Under the pieces are notes generated by a model. That model was not told the DNA's origin. It saw nothing but the letters and a program-made list of their open reading frames with translations, and did no database searches. Of a stretch of DNA of 64,000 nucleotides, positions 2,709 to 64,000 are shown in pieces; positions within the stretch are counted from its first letter, which is position 1, and each line of letters begins with the position of its first letter. The DNA is from a virus. The stretch covers positions 33,067 through 97,066 of the IMG/VR virus record IMGVR_UViG_3300007735_000793, one strand, 5' to 3'. Position numbers and translations under genes: made by a program.

Positions 2709-4508
2709 TTAGTTAGGTAAATAACAGGGGATTAGGACAGTATTTCCATTTAATTTTATTTCCATCCAATAATCAGGTGTTCCTAACGCAAAATCATCAG
2801 CAGTTTGCCCATATATTTCCTTAGCGGGAACATCTGGTAGGTATCTTGGTGGGGGATTACTAGCTTGTGCAGCATCAATTTGAATCCATTTTGTACTTGC
2901 AGGGTCTGATGTTATGTGTACATATTCAGCAGGTGATGATTGTTGTAACCCAACAAAACCACTATCTGTAGTTACAAGTATTCTTGGATTTCCACCCGTA
3001 AAAACCTCAATTACTCCAGTTGGTGTTTCAGTTCCTATACCAACATTACCATCACCCTGTACAAATAATGCTGCCGATGCTGATGGTGAAGATACCCGCA
3101 GTAATGATTGATTATTTGCCCCACTTACATGCAATCTTGCAGAAGGGGTTAATAATCCTACACCCACATTACCACTAGCACTTATAAAGAAGTATTCTGC
3201 ACCTGTTGTGCTTTGCACTCTCATTAAATTATCAGTAGCAACTGTGCCGCTAATGTGCAAAGACGCGGTTGGAAATCTTGTTCCAATTCCTACTCTTGAT
3301 GATCCTACAGTAGTTCCTACTGAATCTATAGTTAGTACTGAATCAGTTAAAGCAGTTGCGGAGGTTGAACTATTATTATTTAATAAAAAGTGTATTTTAC
3401 CACTTGCATTACCACCGCCACCATGCCCATCTGTCCTTTCAAATACAAGTGCCGATTTTCTATAAGATGCGTTTGTTTGCTCAACATATCCAAAAGATAT
3501 GCCTGAAAAGTTATTAATGGAGACTTGCGCTCCAAAACTCGCTGCTATACCAGATATACTACCATTATAGACATCAAAAAGACGTTGGGGGGTTGATATT
3601 CCAATACCAACTCTACCACTACCACTTACAAATAATATATTAGCGTTTGTTGGTGAACCTACCCTTAATAAAGCATCAGCATTAGCGCCACTTATGTGAA
3701 GTTCTGCGGTTGGTGATGTTGTGCCTATGCCCACCTCAGTTGTTGGAGTTATTTTAACATTATTTGTAAATGTAGATGTAAAGTCATTCCAACTTCTTAA
3801 TAACATACCACCATCGGTACTATCACGATGTATGTTAGGGAATGTAGCTCCATTAGCATTTATACTAACACCGGTGTTTCCATTAACAACTAAATTATGA
3901 ACAGGTGTTGTAGTTCCAATGCCTATATTACCACTGCTACTTACATACAGGTGATTAGTGTTAAATGCTGATGTGCCATCATTTAGTATAGTTAAACTTG
4001 CGCTTGCATTACTATTTTCTACCCTAAATGCTGTCGTTGCGGAGGTTGCTCCACTGCCTCTAATTTCTAATTTTGCCGATGGCGAACTTTCTCCAATACC
4101 TACAAACCCAGTAGAACCCACAATTCTCATTATTTCAGGTTGGGTAACTGCGCCTGCGTAAAATGATATATCATTTGCTCCAAATACCCCACCAAGCTCT
4201 GATAACATATAAGCCCCAGCATGTCCGAAACTTGAACTTGCTACTATGTTATTGGTATTATATCTGATATATGGAGTAAACTGCCCTGCCGTAAGAGCAC
4301 CAATAGTTGATGCCGTTATAGAGGTTACAGTTATACCCCCGTTTACTTGAAGAGTGTTTGTTGGTGTCCCCGTTCCAATACCAACTCTACCACTACCTGA
4401 TACGAATAAAGCAGAAGGTGCGGATGGTGATGATACTTGTAATAAATTGGCGTTATTTGAGCCAGTTATTAAAGCATTATCTAATATGGTAGGTGAAAAT
4501 ATATCCAT
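2709..4508 (-). CDS. Tail fibre-like protein with VGIGTTxP repeats
   Basis: About 8 copies of SGxVGIGTxTP...LHISG. Confidence 0.75.
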   Translation of the reverse strand: MDIFSPTILDNALITGSNNANLLQVSSPSAPSALFVSGSGRVGIGTGTPTNTLQVNGGITVTSITASTIGALTAGQFTPYIRYNTNNIVASSSFGHAGAYMLSELGGVFGANDISFYAGAVTQPEIMRIVGSTGFVGIGESSPSAKLEIRGSGATSATTAFRVENSNASASLTILNDGTSAFNTNHLYVSSSGNIGIGTTTPVHNLVVNGNTGVSINANGATFPNIHRDSTDGGMLLRSWNDFTSTFTNNVKITPTTEVGIGTTSPTAELHISGANADALLRVGSPTNANILFVSGSGRVGIGISTPQRLFDVYNGSISGIAASFGAQVSINNFSGISFGYVEQTNASYRKSALVFERTDGHGGGGNASGKIHFLLNNNSSTSATALTDSVLTIDSVGTTVGSSRVGIGTRFPTASLHISGTVATDNLMRVQSTTGAEYFFISASGNVGVGLLTPSARLHVSGANNQSLLRVSSPSASAALFVQGDGNVGIGTETPTGVIEVFTGGNPRILVTTDSGFVGLQQSSPAEYVHITSDPASTKWIQIDAAQASNPPPRYLPDVPAKEIYGQTADDFALGTPDYWMEIKLNGNTVLIPCYLPN

Positions 4509-33004: not shown

Positions 33005-33598
33005 TTATAATGTAGGTGCTGATTGAATAAATGTTCCTGTTGTTACTTCTTTTGTTATAGTAACAGGTATCTCAAGTCTTGCACCAGTTTCTTCACCAAC
33101 AACAATTATTCGGGTAGTTACTGTATTAGTCGATAATGTATTGGCAGGAGAGAATGCAAATTGGTCAGTTCTACCACTTACCATTCTTAATGTTCCTGCC
33201 GTATCATCCAATAAAACAACAAAATAAGATGTGTTTGAATCTGTTGGATTTGATGTTAATGTTACAATTGTTTCATTAACTGTACCGGTGTTAGATATGG
33301 GTATTCTGATTTCACTAACGTTTGCGATAATAGATGGTATTACATCTACCGTTGGGTTTAAGGTTAGCAACTTACTTTTAAATGCATAATTTTCATCAAT
33401 AATTGCTTCAAAAACAGGTAGTTGTTCTATAAAAACTCCCGGATTATTTTGCGTTGTATCCCATAATGAATAATCTATTTCATCATCCCCCAAAGCAAAT
33501 TTTGTTATTTGGAATGGCTTTCCACTTGCAATATACTGCCTACCTAATTTGGTAAGAACTGCATCAATCGTTGTTTCGGTTTTATCTAAATATCCCAT
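33005..33598 (-). CDS. Baseplate/tail structural protein
   Basis: DAVLTKLGR...ITKFALGDDEIDY. Confidence 0.6.
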   Translation of the reverse strand: MGYLDKTETTIDAVLTKLGRQYIASGKPFQITKFALGDDEIDYSLWDTTQNNPGVFIEQLPVFEAIIDENYAFKSKLLTLNPTVDVIPSIIANVSEIRIPISNTGTVNETIVTLTSNPTDSNTSYFVVLLDDTAGTLRMVSGRTDQFAFSPANTLSTNTVTTRIIVVGEETGARLEIPVTITKEVTTGTFIQSAPTL

Positions 33599-59489: not shown

Positions 59490-61055
59490 TTATTGATTAA
59501 TAATCCGTTTGGTATAGGTTCCTGATGTTGTGGTGATACGAACTAATAACACACCACTAACACCACCATTAATTGTTACGATTGATTGTAGTTCATCCCA
59601 CACACTATTTAGGGGTTGTCCTATAACATTGTAAACCATAACACCCAAAATAGGTTCATCTGAACTTATCACAAATTTACCATTCGATGGATTTGGGTAT
59701 AATTTCATTTGGGGAGATGAAACAAAATTGATTGATGTTGGAATAGTATCGGGCATAAAATTAGACCAACCACTTGTCCAATCGGAACTATCACCAAATG
59801 CGCCAATATAAGTAACCGGTGTAAAGAATGAGTTGGATAAACGGGGGATGGTAAATGAAGCGCCATGCCTTAAAATACTATTGGGTTGTAGTAACAATTG
59901 AGGATTTGTTAAATTATTGTAACCAACCGATAAACCAATTTGATGTGTGCTATCATATGTAACATTACCTCTTATGCTATTTGAAAAATATGTTTCCATT
60001 CCAGCCCAACTATTTGCACCTTGCGATTGCTCAAAGTTATTGGTCATATTGGCAAAAACCACTCTTTCAATTTGAAGTGAATCATTGGTGGCGTTACTTT
60101 GAGCAGCACTTCCGTCAATATGTAATCCTGTTGGGTATCCCATAAATACTGAATTGTAAATAGATGTACGGGTGTTTCTACGAAGATGCAATGCTCTACG
60201 ATAAAGCGATGCGGGAGTTCCATTTTCTTTAGGACCGATGATAGTTACATTGGAGAATGTAGGTGCGGTGATAGGTGTGAGTGAAGTACCAGTCCCATCG
60301 TTATCAGACTCGAACCCATTTGATTGTGATTGGTCTGCTATTTGCGCATCACGCATTGAAAGAGCAAATTGAACTTTACCTGTATAACCAAAATCGGTAT
60401 CGAAATCATCATCCCAACCTCTATATGCAATCAGATATTTACAATTTACAGTTCCACCAAACCATTCATAACTATCATCGCCGGAATAAGATACCTGAAC
60501 ATATTCAATAATAGTCCTTCTACCAACCCCGCCCAATGTCAATCCATTAATCTCACTGTTGGGTTGATAAGCAATGCCCGGATATTCAATCCGAACATAT
60601 CTAAATACGCCTGAGCTATCATCATCATAACTCCCACCATATTCCGCATCCGGTCCAAGTAATCCACCTTCAATTTGACCATTTCCACCAGGTACATTTA
60701 TTGTTGCACTACCCAAAATAACAACACCACCCCAATCACCATAGTTCCTTTGACCCGCAGGTTCGTTGGAAGTAAATACAATTGGTTGCGTTTGAGTTCC
60801 GTTTGCATAAATGAGGCCAGAACGAGCAATTATAAGAGTTCCTTTTGTTGCTTTATCCCCCCTAATAATGGTACCCGGTTGAATAGTTAATGTAGCACCA
60901 TCCTTTACAAACCTATTTCCTTTTAGGAGGTAAATACGGTCATTGGTCCAAGTGGTAGATGTGGTGATATCCGTTTGGATAGTGTCAATAGTGGTTTGTG
61001 CTTGTGCAAAACCAAGTGTGCTCATAAGAGCAATCATAAAAAGTTTTTTAATCAT
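59490..61055 (-). CDS. Secreted beta-helix protein with T9SS type A C-terminal domain
   Basis: Signal peptide ...AQA|Q; DDSYEWFGG, DDDFDTDFG; CTD LYPNP...VYNVIGQ...GVLLVRI...KRII. Confidence 0.85.
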   Translation of the reverse strand: MIKKLFMIALMSTLGFAQAQTTIDTIQTDITTSTTWTNDRIYLLKGNRFVKDGATLTIQPGTIIRGDKATKGTLIIARSGLIYANGTQTQPIVFTSNEPAGQRNYGDWGGVVILGSATINVPGGNGQIEGGLLGPDAEYGGSYDDDSSGVFRYVRIEYPGIAYQPNSEINGLTLGGVGRRTIIEYVQVSYSGDDSYEWFGGTVNCKYLIAYRGWDDDFDTDFGYTGKVQFALSMRDAQIADQSQSNGFESDNDGTGTSLTPITAPTFSNVTIIGPKENGTPASLYRRALHLRRNTRTSIYNSVFMGYPTGLHIDGSAAQSNATNDSLQIERVVFANMTNNFEQSQGANSWAGMETYFSNSIRGNVTYDSTHQIGLSVGYNNLTNPQLLLQPNSILRHGASFTIPRLSNSFFTPVTYIGAFGDSSDWTSGWSNFMPDTIPTSINFVSSPQMKLYPNPSNGKFVISSDEPILGVMVYNVIGQPLNSVWDELQSIVTINGGVSGVLLVRITTTSGTYTKRIINQ

Positions 61056-62341: not shown

Positions 62342-62791
62342 TTATCTACAATGATAATCTGCTGCACGAGTTGCAATTTGAATATCAGGTTTAACATTTA
62401 CTTTATATCCTAATGATACTGCCCACCCCCGTGTCGCTCCTATAAGTTTATTAGATTGAGAAAATTCATCCTGATTATAATCCATATCAATTTCAACTTT
62501 AATATTGATTTGTTGAGTAAACCATTCTGCAACTTCTATTGTACGAGAACATTCATCAAATAATCTTGTAAACATATCTCTAACCAATGGAACTTTTTCT
62601 TTTGTATAGATATAATGAACTCCTCTTACACCAAAACGATATGCTATTACCGTTACATATGATGTTTCCAAACCTACATTTTGAGAATCAGTACCAATAT
62701 GGACTTTTAAATTAGGATGTATTTTCATTATCTCTAAAGTATGTTCGATAACATCTACCACTTTATTGTTTACTGATTTGAACCTTTTCAT
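62342..62791 (-). CDS. RNase H-like YkuK (DUF458) family protein
   Basis: HIGTDSQ, RLFDE, AADY. Confidence 0.8.
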   Translation of the reverse strand: MKRFKSVNNKVVDVIEHTLEIMKIHPNLKVHIGTDSQNVGLETSYVTVIAYRFGVRGVHYIYTKEKVPLVRDMFTRLFDECSRTIEVAEWFTQQINIKVEIDMDYNQDEFSQSNKLIGATRGWAVSLGYKVNVKPDIQIATRAADYHCR

Positions 62792-62817
62792 TTTACTTCT
62801 ATTTTAGAAACTTTTTG

Positions 62818-62888
62818 CATGGGTAGTAGGATTCGAACCCACAACAACGCTTTTGGAGAGCGACATGATACCATTTCACTATACCCAT
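62818..62888 (-). tRNA. tRNA-Trp(CCA)
   Basis: CTCCAAA loop, cloverleaf. Confidence 0.9.
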
Positions 62889-62898
62889 ATTATCTTTG

Positions 62899-62969
62899 AG
62901 GTACTGATTGGATTTGAACCAATATAAGAGCTTTTGCAGAGCTCCACCTTGCCAGTCGGACACAGTACC
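62899..62969 (-). tRNA. tRNA-Cys(GCA)
   Basis: GAGCT-CTGCAAA-AGCTC, U73. Confidence 0.93.
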
Positions 62970-62975
62970 ATAATG

Positions 62976-63047
62976 TGGCTCTTGAACGATTCGAACGTCC
63001 AATACTTCGTCCGTAGCGAAGAGGTTTATCCATTAGCCTAAAGAGCC
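62976..63047 (-). tRNA. tRNA-Arg(ACG)
   Basis: CTTCG-CTACGGA-CGAAG. Confidence 0.9.
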
Positions 63048-63052
63048 TTGTG

Positions 63053-63126
63053 TTGGAATAGCCGGATTCGAACCAGCGACCTTTTGAATATCAGTCAAAT
63101 GCTCTAACCAACTGAGCTAAAGGTGT
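63053..63126 (-). pseudogene. Chimeric tRNA-Ile(GAT) with unpaired acceptor stem
   Basis: D, anticodon and T arms intact; 5' ACACCTT cannot pair with 3' TATTCCA. Confidence 0.7.
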
Positions 63127-63131
63127 AAATG

Positions 63132-63204
63132 TGACCCCGAACGGAATCGAACCGTTACTCCCCTGGTTAAAAGCCAGGTGCTTTACCAATTAAGCTACGA
63201 AGTC
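63132..63204 (-). tRNA. tRNA-Lys(TTT); 5' end supplied by the HNH gene 3' end
   Basis: CCTGG-CTTTTAA-CCAGG; overlaps HNH stop codon. Confidence 0.9.
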
Positions 63205-63895
63205 ATATTCTCTTTTCAATCTATGACACCTATTATAGTTTCCGCCTTTAGGTGCTAACCCAACCGAAATAAGAGATTGTCTGAAATTCCACATATTGAG
63301 TAGTAGTGATTCTAATAAAGTTTCATCATTAACTCGCAGTTTTCTTTCTTTTTTATTTCTACCTCGCCATGTAGATGTGAGTGAATGACAATTAGGACAT
63401 AGCATTTCTAAATTATCTCTACAGTTATTAAAGTGATTACCATCTTTATGTTCTAATTCCAAAACTAAAGGAGTATTTAACCACTCATCCAATCCACATT
63501 TATTACATTTTTCATTTTGTTCGTATAATATTCTGGCTCTGAGAGATTCAAAACTTAAATCAGAATAATTGGACTCTAATATATGTTTTTTATGAGCCTC
63601 TCTTTTTGTTTTTGTTATTTTATCAATAATCTCCTTACTTTTCAGAGATTCTCGTTGTTTTATAGCTTTTTCAGAAGTTCTAGCAGCTTTTGATTTTTTT
63701 AATTTATCATTATCCGACCAAATTCTACTATTCCTACAATTCAAAGAGCAATAATTAATCAAACCTTTAGTTGGTTGAAAGTCGATTCCACATTTTTTAC
63801 ATTGTTTCATAAGTTTTGTTTTAATATAAATATTATGTGGAACTCTCAAATATTAAAAAATTAAAAAATAATTTAACCAATTGAGCTACGGGGTC
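63185..63895 (-). mobile_element. HNH cassette inserted in tRNA-Lys with duplicated 5' tRNA segment
   Basis: Orphan 5' fragment at 63876-63895 matches 63185-63204 at 17/20. Confidence 0.8.
63190..63810 (-). CDS. HNH homing endonuclease
   Basis: CKKC..YCSLNC zinc motif; CNKC...LELEHKDGNHFNN..DNL..LCPNCH; start moved to MKQCK. Confidence 0.9.
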   Translation of the reverse strand: MKQCKKCGIDFQPTKGLINYCSLNCRNSRIWSDNDKLKKSKAARTSEKAIKQRESLKSKEIIDKITKTKREAHKKHILESNYSDLSFESLRARILYEQNEKCNKCGLDEWLNTPLVLELEHKDGNHFNNCRDNLEMLCPNCHSLTSTWRGRNKKERKLRVNDETLLESLLLNMWNFRQSLISVGLAPKGGNYNRCHRLKREYDFVA

Positions 63896-63900
63896 ATTTG

Positions 63901-63973
63901 TACTCTCGACAGGATTCGAACCTGTAACCTCGATGATATAAGCATCTTGCGCTAACCATTGCGCCACGAGAGC
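63901..63973 (-). tRNA. tRNA-Ile(TAT)
   Basis: GATG-CTTATAT-CATC, GCTCTCG/CGAGAGT acceptor, A73. Confidence 0.85.
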
Positions 63974-63982
63974 ATAATTATG

Positions 63983-64000
63983 AGGAAGAGGTGAGATTCG
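63983..64000 (-). tRNA. 3' end of a further tRNA (truncated by window edge)
   Basis: CGAATCTCACCTCTTCCT, T-arm and acceptor strand. Confidence 0.6.

Follow-up and report, generated by a model that had tools for sequence, protein, structure and literature searches.

How can a free-standing homing endonuclease gene, with no intron around it, enter an RNA gene of just 75 nucleotides (nt)? This question is raised by a locus in the IMG/VR virus record IMGVR_UViG_3300007735_000793. We analyzed 64,000 nt of that record (positions 33,067 to 97,066; hereafter, the window). The record is a viral contig of 97 kb, with a completeness of about one half, and the window makes up its final 64 kb. At the end of the window, 20 tRNA genes form an array on the minus strand. 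Within this array, a gene for an HNH endonuclease is found between the stranded 5' end of one tRNA-Lys gene and a second, complete tRNA-Lys gene. That phage tRNA clusters can contain homing endonucleases has been clear since the work on T4 SegB and the T5 F-Tfl enzymes; in the papers that could be searched, the intron-less entry of such a gene into a 75-nt RNA gene is not spelled out.

Our best explanation involves two alleles of tRNA-Lys, A and B. The gene is probably a free-standing F-TflIV-like HNH homing endonuclease gene in a phage tRNA array, with its own tRNA-Lys (allele B) linked on its 3' side. The unit made up of its leader, its open reading frame (ORF), and B appears to have replaced all of the resident allele A past nucleotide 22, and the first 22 nt of A would remain as a dead stub. 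We give this joint reading, with the origin of the stub as one part of it, a probability of roughly 0.78. The features of the locus are, in 5' to 3' order on the minus strand:

63900..63973, minus strand: tRNA-Ile(UAU), the upstream neighbor (ARAGORN; Infernal tRNA model, 63.6 bits)
63896..63899, minus strand: 4-nt spacer, AAAT, from tRNA-Ile to the stub
63874..63895, minus strand: 22-nt stub, the same as positions 1-22 of allele-A tRNA-Lys; left junction of the cassette
63811..63873, minus strand: AT-rich leader of 63 nt, a presumed promoter or regulatory region
63190..63810, minus strand: HNH endonuclease ORF, 206 amino acids plus TAA (ATG at 63810, TAA at 63190-63192)
63131..63204, minus strand: complete tRNA-Lys(UUU), allele B (ARAGORN; Infernal, 72.3 bits across the full model)

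The stranded piece was described as a 20-mer (63876-63895) in the initial annotation, which was made from the letters and their open reading frames. Its features, coordinates, and strand were all confirmed, as were the differences between this 20-mer and the 5' end of the complete tRNA-Lys: the two are identical at 17/20 positions and differ at positions 4, 5, and 13, where the stub has C and the tRNA has T. If up to three mismatches are allowed, the 20-mer occurs at two sites only in the window, which are the stub and the tRNA-Lys 5' end (0/100 shuffles). The insert is about 0.69 kb. We considered an integrase-borne, tRNA-targeting island and rejected it, because the single ORF in the insert is the HNH ORF, where such an island would have a recombinase gene, and because the duplicated part of the tRNA is its 5' end, not its 3' end.

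Allelic states of the tRNA-Lys site

Relatives of the locus were fetched with the 3' end of tRNA-Ile(UAU) as the anchor, which yielded 15 viral contigs and 22 metagenome contigs. This tRNA gene is the left homology arm and is common to all of the allelic states, of which there are three main ones. First, six viral contigs (L016-L021) and five metagenome contigs (L111, L113, L115, L124, and L131) have no HNH gene and carry an intact allele-A tRNA-Lys, 4 nt after tRNA-Ile. The first 22 nt of allele A are the stub sequence, and the 3' strand of its D-stem is GAGC. The initial annotation had taken the stranded piece to be the leftover of a tRNA-Lys gene and had predicted an intact gene, with the stub-type 5' end and GAGC, in HNH-free relatives; allele A, at the same site, is that gene. 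Second, the stub, the HNH gene, and allele B are found together in the window, in four other viral contigs (L002-L005), and in one metagenome contig (L130, for which the left junction only was read; the five HNH-bearing viral contigs were examined in full). Third, allele B stands alone directly after tRNA-Ile, without any trace of the cassette, in three viral and five metagenome contigs (L015, L023, L025, L119, L121, L123, L127, and L129), and its 5' sequence is the same as in the window. Other anchored contigs contain a third allele (C) or no tRNA-Lys.

Close relatives place the junctions precisely. The HNH-free contig L017 is 99% identical to the window, with one mismatch, from tRNA-Ile through tRNA-Lys position 22 (63874). 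The identity stops abruptly at that position and resumes directly after the 3' end of tRNA-Lys. The match of the stranded piece to the HNH-free allele thus extends to 22 nt (63874-63895), and the 4-nt spacer in front of it is identical to the spacer that precedes the intact tRNA-Lys in HNH-free relatives of the window's background (L017, L015, and L113). Also, three contigs with the same gene order represent the three states: L020 (allele A), L005 (stub, HNH gene, and B), and L025 (B). These are 98.1-98.8% identical over more than 2.2 kb of the downstream flank, and the sole difference between L005 and L025 is the cassette of about 690 bp, which is bounded by a 20-nt direct repeat. Close relatives are polymorphic for the presence of the cassette at this single locus.

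Alleles A and B can be told apart at position 13, at positions 21-22, and farther along: in the length of the D-loop, in the 13-22 pair, in all five pairs of the anticodon stem, in the variable loop, and in the T arm. Because they differ along their whole length, B is a separate gene rather than a copy of A with three C-to-T changes. Allele B follows the HNH ORF in 5/5 of the HNH-bearing viral contigs that were examined in full (the window and L002-L005). It is linked to the HNH gene and travels with it.

The HNH ORF has no stop codon of its own. It runs four codons into the tRNA and stops at T13-A14-A15, so that tRNA positions 1-15 are also the last four codons (DFVA) and the TAA stop of the ORF. 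The conserved part of the protein ends just before the tRNA, at ...CHRLK(K/R)EY, and the tails past this point differ by context (DFVA, DLVA, NKLTS, EENTRL, FG, or QNLKD), while the 5' end of tRNA-Lys is the same with or without the HNH gene. This combination of a variable tail and a constant tRNA 5' end implies that the tRNA lends the ORF its tail and its stop codon, and not that the tRNA was re-coded to fit the ORF.

The initial annotation had proposed just such a re-coding: the HNH cassette was inserted at position 20 of tRNA-Lys, and it carries a rebuilt 5' end for the tRNA in which three C-to-T changes kill the target but keep the tRNA. The 15-nt overlap between the end of the ORF and the start of the tRNA, together with the 17/20 identity between the stub and the tRNA 5' end, speaks for this proposal. 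Nevertheless, we consider it very unlikely. Past position 20, the tRNA is not that of the old gene, since B differs from A in all arms; B is found with the same 5' end in 8 HNH-free contigs; the copies in loci of the L002 type differ at one position only; the tail of the ORF is not conserved, but the tRNA is; and the ancestral gene that the proposal implies, with the stub as the 5' end of the present tRNA body, was not found in viral contigs. The functional tRNA is a different allele, and of the proposed homing into a tRNA with repair of the gene, we retain the intron-less homing into a tRNA gene and drop the rebuilding by three C-to-T changes.

If the stub is the remnant of a resident allele A, then it should vary with the recipient, and the stub does track the local A allele. 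In the window, positions 5 and 13 of the stub are both C, as in the A alleles of the same background (L017 and L113), and in the L002-type loci it is identical at 22/22 positions to the A allele of L016. By sequence, this is the pattern expected from homing into different recipients. A different origin for the stub would be a 20-nt duplication of B's own 5' end, resembling a target-site duplication, that was made at insertion and has since drifted or been converted. The stub in L005 has the B-type T13, A and B can be distinguished at just one to two of the first 20 nt, and positions 21-22 (TA) could belong to the leader, all of which would suit a duplication. We think that this origin is unlikely: the stub follows the local A allele in both backgrounds, the identity to HNH-free L017 is unbroken from tRNA-Ile through position 22, and no such duplication is seen at other loci of the family. 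A 20-nt overhang would also be too long for an HNH enzyme, whose cuts leave just a few nucleotides unpaired.

The first 7 nt of the stub are perfectly complementary to the 3' acceptor strand of the complete tRNA-Lys. This pairing, which the initial annotation had pointed out, is present in the window but is not conserved: in the L002-type loci, the stub and the tRNA are identical across the pairing region of the acceptor and differ at one position only. The pairing reflects the homology between the alleles. It is also what could favor an intron or another spliced insertion, with the stranded 5' piece used in the mature tRNA, but this seems extremely unlikely. There is no Rfam intron family in 62750-64000 at E <=1, no tRNA of the region scores higher than the complete one downstream (72.3 bits), this tRNA stands alone in HNH-free relatives, and RNAalifold found no conserved structure in the leader. 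To our knowledge, the D-loop is not a site of tRNA introns. A group I intron-encoded endonuclease in a tRNA was rejected for similar reasons (no match to an Rfam intron, an insertion point in the D-loop rather than in the anticodon loop where such introns usually sit, and a complete tRNA downstream).

Other variation was seen around the site. Whichever allele is present (A, B, or the HNH gene with B), a 95-nt spacer after tRNA-Lys is conserved in L016, L018-L021, L023, L025, and L005. The window, L014, L015, and L017 lack this spacer, and their next tRNA begins 4-5 nt after tRNA-Lys. In L118 (positions 491-690; also in L125, L126, and L132), about 200 nt of G+C-richer, non-coding-looking sequence follows tRNA-Ile(UAU) and replaces tRNA-Lys; this sequence had no match in Rfam at E <=0.01. 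In L013, from position 3734 onward, an ORF for an RNase H-like protein directly follows tRNA-Ile(UAU). In the window, five tRNA genes and the HNH cassette separate tRNA-Ile(UAU) from the RNase H-like ORF (62342-62791, minus strand; PF04308, E = 4.6e-21). In this phage group, tRNA genes are gained and lost in whole blocks.

The HNH protein, its family, and its expression

As the initial annotation recognized, this is a free-standing HNH gene of the homing type in a tRNA gene context. The protein matches phrog_14736 (E = 3e-29), phrog_10822 (E = 1.5e-22), and nine further HNH PHROGs, and a tblastn search found 219 phage records, many of which are annotated as HNH or F-TflIV. Across residues 77-198, it is 40% identical (E = 3e-25) to a protein of a T4-like phage that is annotated as "H-N-H endonuclease F-TflIV" and whose gene is directly in front of a tRNA cluster. 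It is also 43% identical (E = 1e-26) to the HNH protein of the T5-like Salmonella phage S124, whose coding sequence overlaps tRNA-Leu by 6 nt. By sequence, it is a member of the F-TflIV-like HNH genes of T5- and T4-like phages. The best match in NCBIfam was to the HNH-bearing ZorE, far under that family's cut-off. A sequence search of the PDB gave matches to cytochrome c-552 only, which are spurious (CxxCH). We found no close relative of the locus in a nucleotide search of cultured-phage records and no second copy of the HNH gene in the same contig.

The ATG at 63810 is the start common to all of the homologs. Across eight sequences, down to 34% identity, residues C102, C105, H121, N133, C138, C141, and H142 are invariant, and so are N125 and N129. 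H121, N125/N129/N133, and H142 provide the catalytic His, structural Asn, and metal-binding His expected of an HNH endonuclease. The two CxxC pairs that flank them (C102-x2-C105 and C138-x2-C141) are presumed zinc ligands. An N-terminal Cys4 module is also invariant among the homologs. The ORF is intact in seven contexts, and the pairwise ratio of nonsynonymous to synonymous substitution rates (dN/dS) is 0.13-0.33, which indicates that the gene is maintained by selection. An AlphaFold 2 (AF2) model of the protein has a predicted local distance difference test score (pLDDT) of 82.5; Foldseek found no match to this model at E <=0.001.

Are other members of the family also found beside tRNAs? We identified 490 relatives in viral contigs and examined the best 80 of these. 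A tRNA lies within 1.2 kb in 75 of these 80. In 21, the stop codon of the ORF falls within the next tRNA on the same strand, and in 13 more the ORF ends 0-12 nt before such a tRNA. The borrowed stop codon is mostly at the nearly universal U8-A9-G10 of the tRNA (9 cases, as TAG or TAA), followed by positions 13-15 (4 cases) and positions 16-18 (3 cases). In L006 (3612-3684), position 10 of the tRNA-Lys at the end of the HNH ORF is A, paired with T25, where G10-C25 is usual, so the borrowed stop there is TAA at positions 8-10.

The closest relatives favor one isotype. Among the 24 closest, 12 loci have tRNA-Lys directly beside the cassette, and tRNA-Lys accounts for 13/31 of the adjacent tRNAs versus 9/114 of the non-adjacent tRNAs (odds ratio 8.4; Fisher p = 2.5e-5, which is indicative only because the loci are not phylogenetically independent). 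This subfamily appears to be specific for tRNA-Lys. More distant relatives (L048-L106) are mostly beside tRNA-Leu, chiefly with the UAA anticodon (17/52 adjacent tRNAs), which suggests that HNH subfamilies track different tRNA isotypes.

The geometry of the cassette varies across the family. In other lineages it is in the spacer after an intact tRNA-Lys (L007, L009, L029, and L044), and in L006 it is in front of tRNA-Lys without a stub. When 37 further family loci were searched for a 5' stub of the tRNA that follows the cassette, one was seen only in the lineage of the window's type. (A stub-like match in L007 is the D-arm of a neighboring intact tRNA.) In L008 (2850-3660), which encodes a protein with 54% identity, the cassette is seemingly inside a tRNA-Lys-like gene. 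The 5' acceptor strand, the D arm, and the anticodon arm (UUU) are upstream of the cassette, and after the stop codon of the ORF there is a 9-nt perfect complement of the 5' acceptor strand and a discriminator A. We did not find an intact T arm in L008, and ARAGORN calls no tRNA there. Possible readings of L008 are a tRNA gene that was disrupted or an insertion with another geometry.

Seven loci with different neighbors have a conserved leader before the HNH start. It includes a box with TATTTATA at 63826-63833, and the invariant part of the leader is ATATTTAT (63826-63833). The initial annotation had listed TATTTATA as a motif of the cassette. The box is real, and it is invariant in the leaders of HNH genes, but it is not a recurrent motif of this phage: neither the box nor the longer leader motif is repeated upstream of other genes in the window, where the motif is unique. 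They are therefore not a general promoter of this phage. Scans of the leader for a sigma-70-type promoter and for a terminator found neither. There is no Shine-Dalgarno sequence before the HNH start.

The shared nucleotides could also affect expression, as the initial annotation had inferred from a loss of the stop codon by tRNA 5' processing. The HNH gene is inside a one-strand tRNA array or operon, so a cut by RNase P at the 5' end of tRNA-Lys (63204/63205) would remove the last 12 coding nucleotides and the stop codon and would leave a mRNA without a stop. This would hold the expression of a potentially toxic nuclease low. An earlier proposal for segB and tRNA-Arg of T4 likewise placed tRNA processing between the last codon of the ORF and its stop, and the same idea is mentioned for the F-Tfl genes of T5 (PMC2330249).

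Proposed homing, allele replacement, and loss

What sequence of events could link the three states? We propose that, when an HNH-free relative is present in a mixed infection, the nuclease made there would cut the relative's allele A at about positions 20-25, in the D-loop region or close to it. The break would be repaired from the HNH-bearing genome, with tRNA-Ile and the stub as the left arm and with the 3' end of tRNA-Lys and the next tRNAs as the right arm. Repair would copy in both the cassette and allele B, which is unlike A throughout and is presumably uncut. The first stub junction would have had to arise once, by illegitimate, one-sided repair. Later, recombination between the 20-nt direct repeats (the stub and the 5' end of B) could remove the nuclease gene and leave B alone; alternatively, the gene could be lost if repair were primed on B's own 5' end. 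Homing followed by loss would account for all three natural states, and by analogy to T4 SegB and T5 F-Tfl, intron-less homing with replacement of the linked allele is our best reading of the locus.

A D-arm-mediated deletion of the kind proposed for the loss of the nuclease is visible in the window. At 63053-63126 (minus strand) there is a chimeric pseudo-tRNA, which ARAGORN does not call. Its 5' acceptor strand is from tRNA-Val(UAC), its body and 3' end are from tRNA-Ile(GAU), and the two are fused within the D-arm that they have in common (TAGCTCAGTTGGTT). In this chimera, 2/7 acceptor pairs form, and Infernal matches model positions 8-63 only (50.7 bits). Relatives have Val-Phe-Tyr-Ile(GAU) instead, so about 250 nt were deleted in the window by recombination between D-arms.

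The same deletion could be turned against mobility. If tRNA arrays recombine at D-arms unaided, as the chimeric pseudo-tRNA shows, and if whole blocks are missing, as in L013 and L015, then the three states could have arisen by ordinary recombination and deletion of tRNA genes, and the nuclease could be a domesticated or tolerated gene that is inherited vertically and is no longer mobile here. A divergence of about 20% separates the window's cassette from the others; the flanks have diverged to a similar degree, which would fit this scenario as well. On the other hand, the ORF is under purifying selection and its catalytic residues are invariant; genomes whose flanks are 98-99% identical show all three states, a sign of recent turnover; B and the HNH gene are strictly linked; and the family is tied to one tRNA isotype. 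We consider an immobile nuclease to be quite unlikely, and we prefer the mobile cassette with its linked allele.

Several other points weigh against that preference. The cleavage itself, its target, the position of the cut, and the immunity of B are deduced from the anatomy of the locus, and the effect of RNase P is a prediction. The assignment of the stub to A rather than B depends on two informative sites in the window (5 and 13) and on one in the L002 type, and the T13 of the L005 stub points the other way. The near-isogenic partner for the window itself, L017, is limited to short tRNA flanks. The divergence of the window's cassette from those of L002 and L005 (about 20% at the DNA level) indicates that the insertion is old in the window's lineage and may now be inherited vertically. 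Genomes with B only could, in principle, be ancestral instead of the products of HNH loss. The non-independence of the loci also tempers the preference for tRNA-Lys. Finally, the assignment of the protein as an HNH enzyme is less clear in some comparisons. Pfam's HNH models have no match to it, even at E 10. As for the beta-beta-alpha-metal fold of HNH enzymes, the best Foldseek matches of the AF2 model, to the HNH domains of Cas9, Cap5, and McrA, are weak (E 0.05-0.4). Alignments of residues 79-153 with VIA-align are also weak, with scores in the range that this tool calls common: Z 6.5 for the HNH domain of Cas9 (72 amino acids, root-mean-square deviation 5.3), Z 5.5 for McrA (25% identity), and Z 5.4 for IscB.

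If our reading is correct, then this locus and its relatives show one natural solution to the intron-less entry into a 75-nt RNA gene: a complete second allele is brought in, a 22-nt stub of the old gene is left behind, and the nuclease can later be lost, so that only the new allele remains. Genomes with 98-99% identity in the flank capture all three of these stages. Alleles A and B form a directly testable pair of substrates for an uncharacterized and apparently tRNA-Lys-specific subfamily. The locus is also a concrete system for asking if processing by RNase P limits the expression of a nuclease, and if such elements spread tRNA variants that escape from tRNA-cutting defenses. In E. coli and T5, the region of the anticodon stem decides whether tRNA-Lys is cut by anti-phage nucleases such as AriB of PARIS (PMC11464382). 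We can speculate that HNH-linked allele swapping spreads nuclease-resistant variants of tRNA-Lys and that the stop codon within the tRNA is a selected device for controlling dosage via RNase P, although we view this as rather doubtful. If it were true, then the cassette would be more than selfish, as it would make phages rapidly exchange tRNA-Lys alleles that differ in every one of the five anticodon-stem pairs.

As for the host, a 521-amino-acid protein is encoded at 59490-61055 (minus strand). It has a signal peptide and a match to Por_Secre_tail, the C-terminal sorting domain of type IX secretion (E = 1.8e-5, just under Pfam's cut-off). This protein points to a host from the Bacteroidota, which fits with the missing Shine-Dalgarno sequence before the HNH start.

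Comparison with known systems

In a search of the literature, we found no description of a nuclease that is accompanied by a complete spare allele of its RNA-gene target, by a 5' stub of that target, and by an end stage with only the new allele. The closest resemblance is to T4 SegB, which cuts tRNA genes and drives the replacement of the tRNA region (PMC2330249). A paper from 2026 reports that the association of SegB with tRNAs is widespread and that units of a tRNA and segB are bounded by microhomology, which lies between the 5' end of the tRNA and the 3' end of the homing endonuclease gene (HEG) (PMC13096335).

Like segB, the window's gene is a free-standing endonuclease gene within a phage tRNA cluster, and the end of its ORF abuts the next tRNA (PMC2330249). 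The target is in the tRNA genes of relatives that lack the nuclease, as would be the case here, and homing co-converts the neighboring tRNA genes. SegB differs in that it belongs to the GIY-YIG superfamily, not to HNH. SegB also recognizes a motif in the T-arm that is common to many tRNAs, without a preference for isotype, whereas the window's enzyme seems to be tied to tRNA-Lys. And no 5' stub of the replaced tRNA is described for SegB.

The F-Tfl enzymes of T5 (PMID 15456135; as cited in PMC2330249 and PMC10644984) and the genes annotated as F-TflIV in T4-like phages are in the same protein family by sequence. Like the window's gene, the F-TflIV-annotated and T5-like HNH genes are directly upstream of a tRNA gene or overlap one. 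Residues 1-80 of the window's protein, which comprise an additional N-terminal Cys4 module and a long helix, have no counterpart in the F-TflIV-annotated protein or the S124 protein; this comparison is to database annotations, not to the characterized proteins of T5. We know of no report of a stub or of a linked spare tRNA in the F-Tfl or F-TflIV systems.

A third comparison is to SegF, SegG, and MobE of T4 (Belle et al. 2002; Liu et al. 2003; both referenced in PMC2330249; see also PMC2790892). In these systems, the HEG adjoins the gene that is cut in relatives without the HEG, the HEG-linked allele is polymorphic and presumed to be immune, and flanking markers are co-converted, all of which resembles our locus. 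Those genes sit between protein-coding genes and leave the frame of the target gene intact. Here, in contrast, the target would be a 75-nt RNA gene, a whole gene is brought in as the second allele, and the 5' end of the old gene is left behind.

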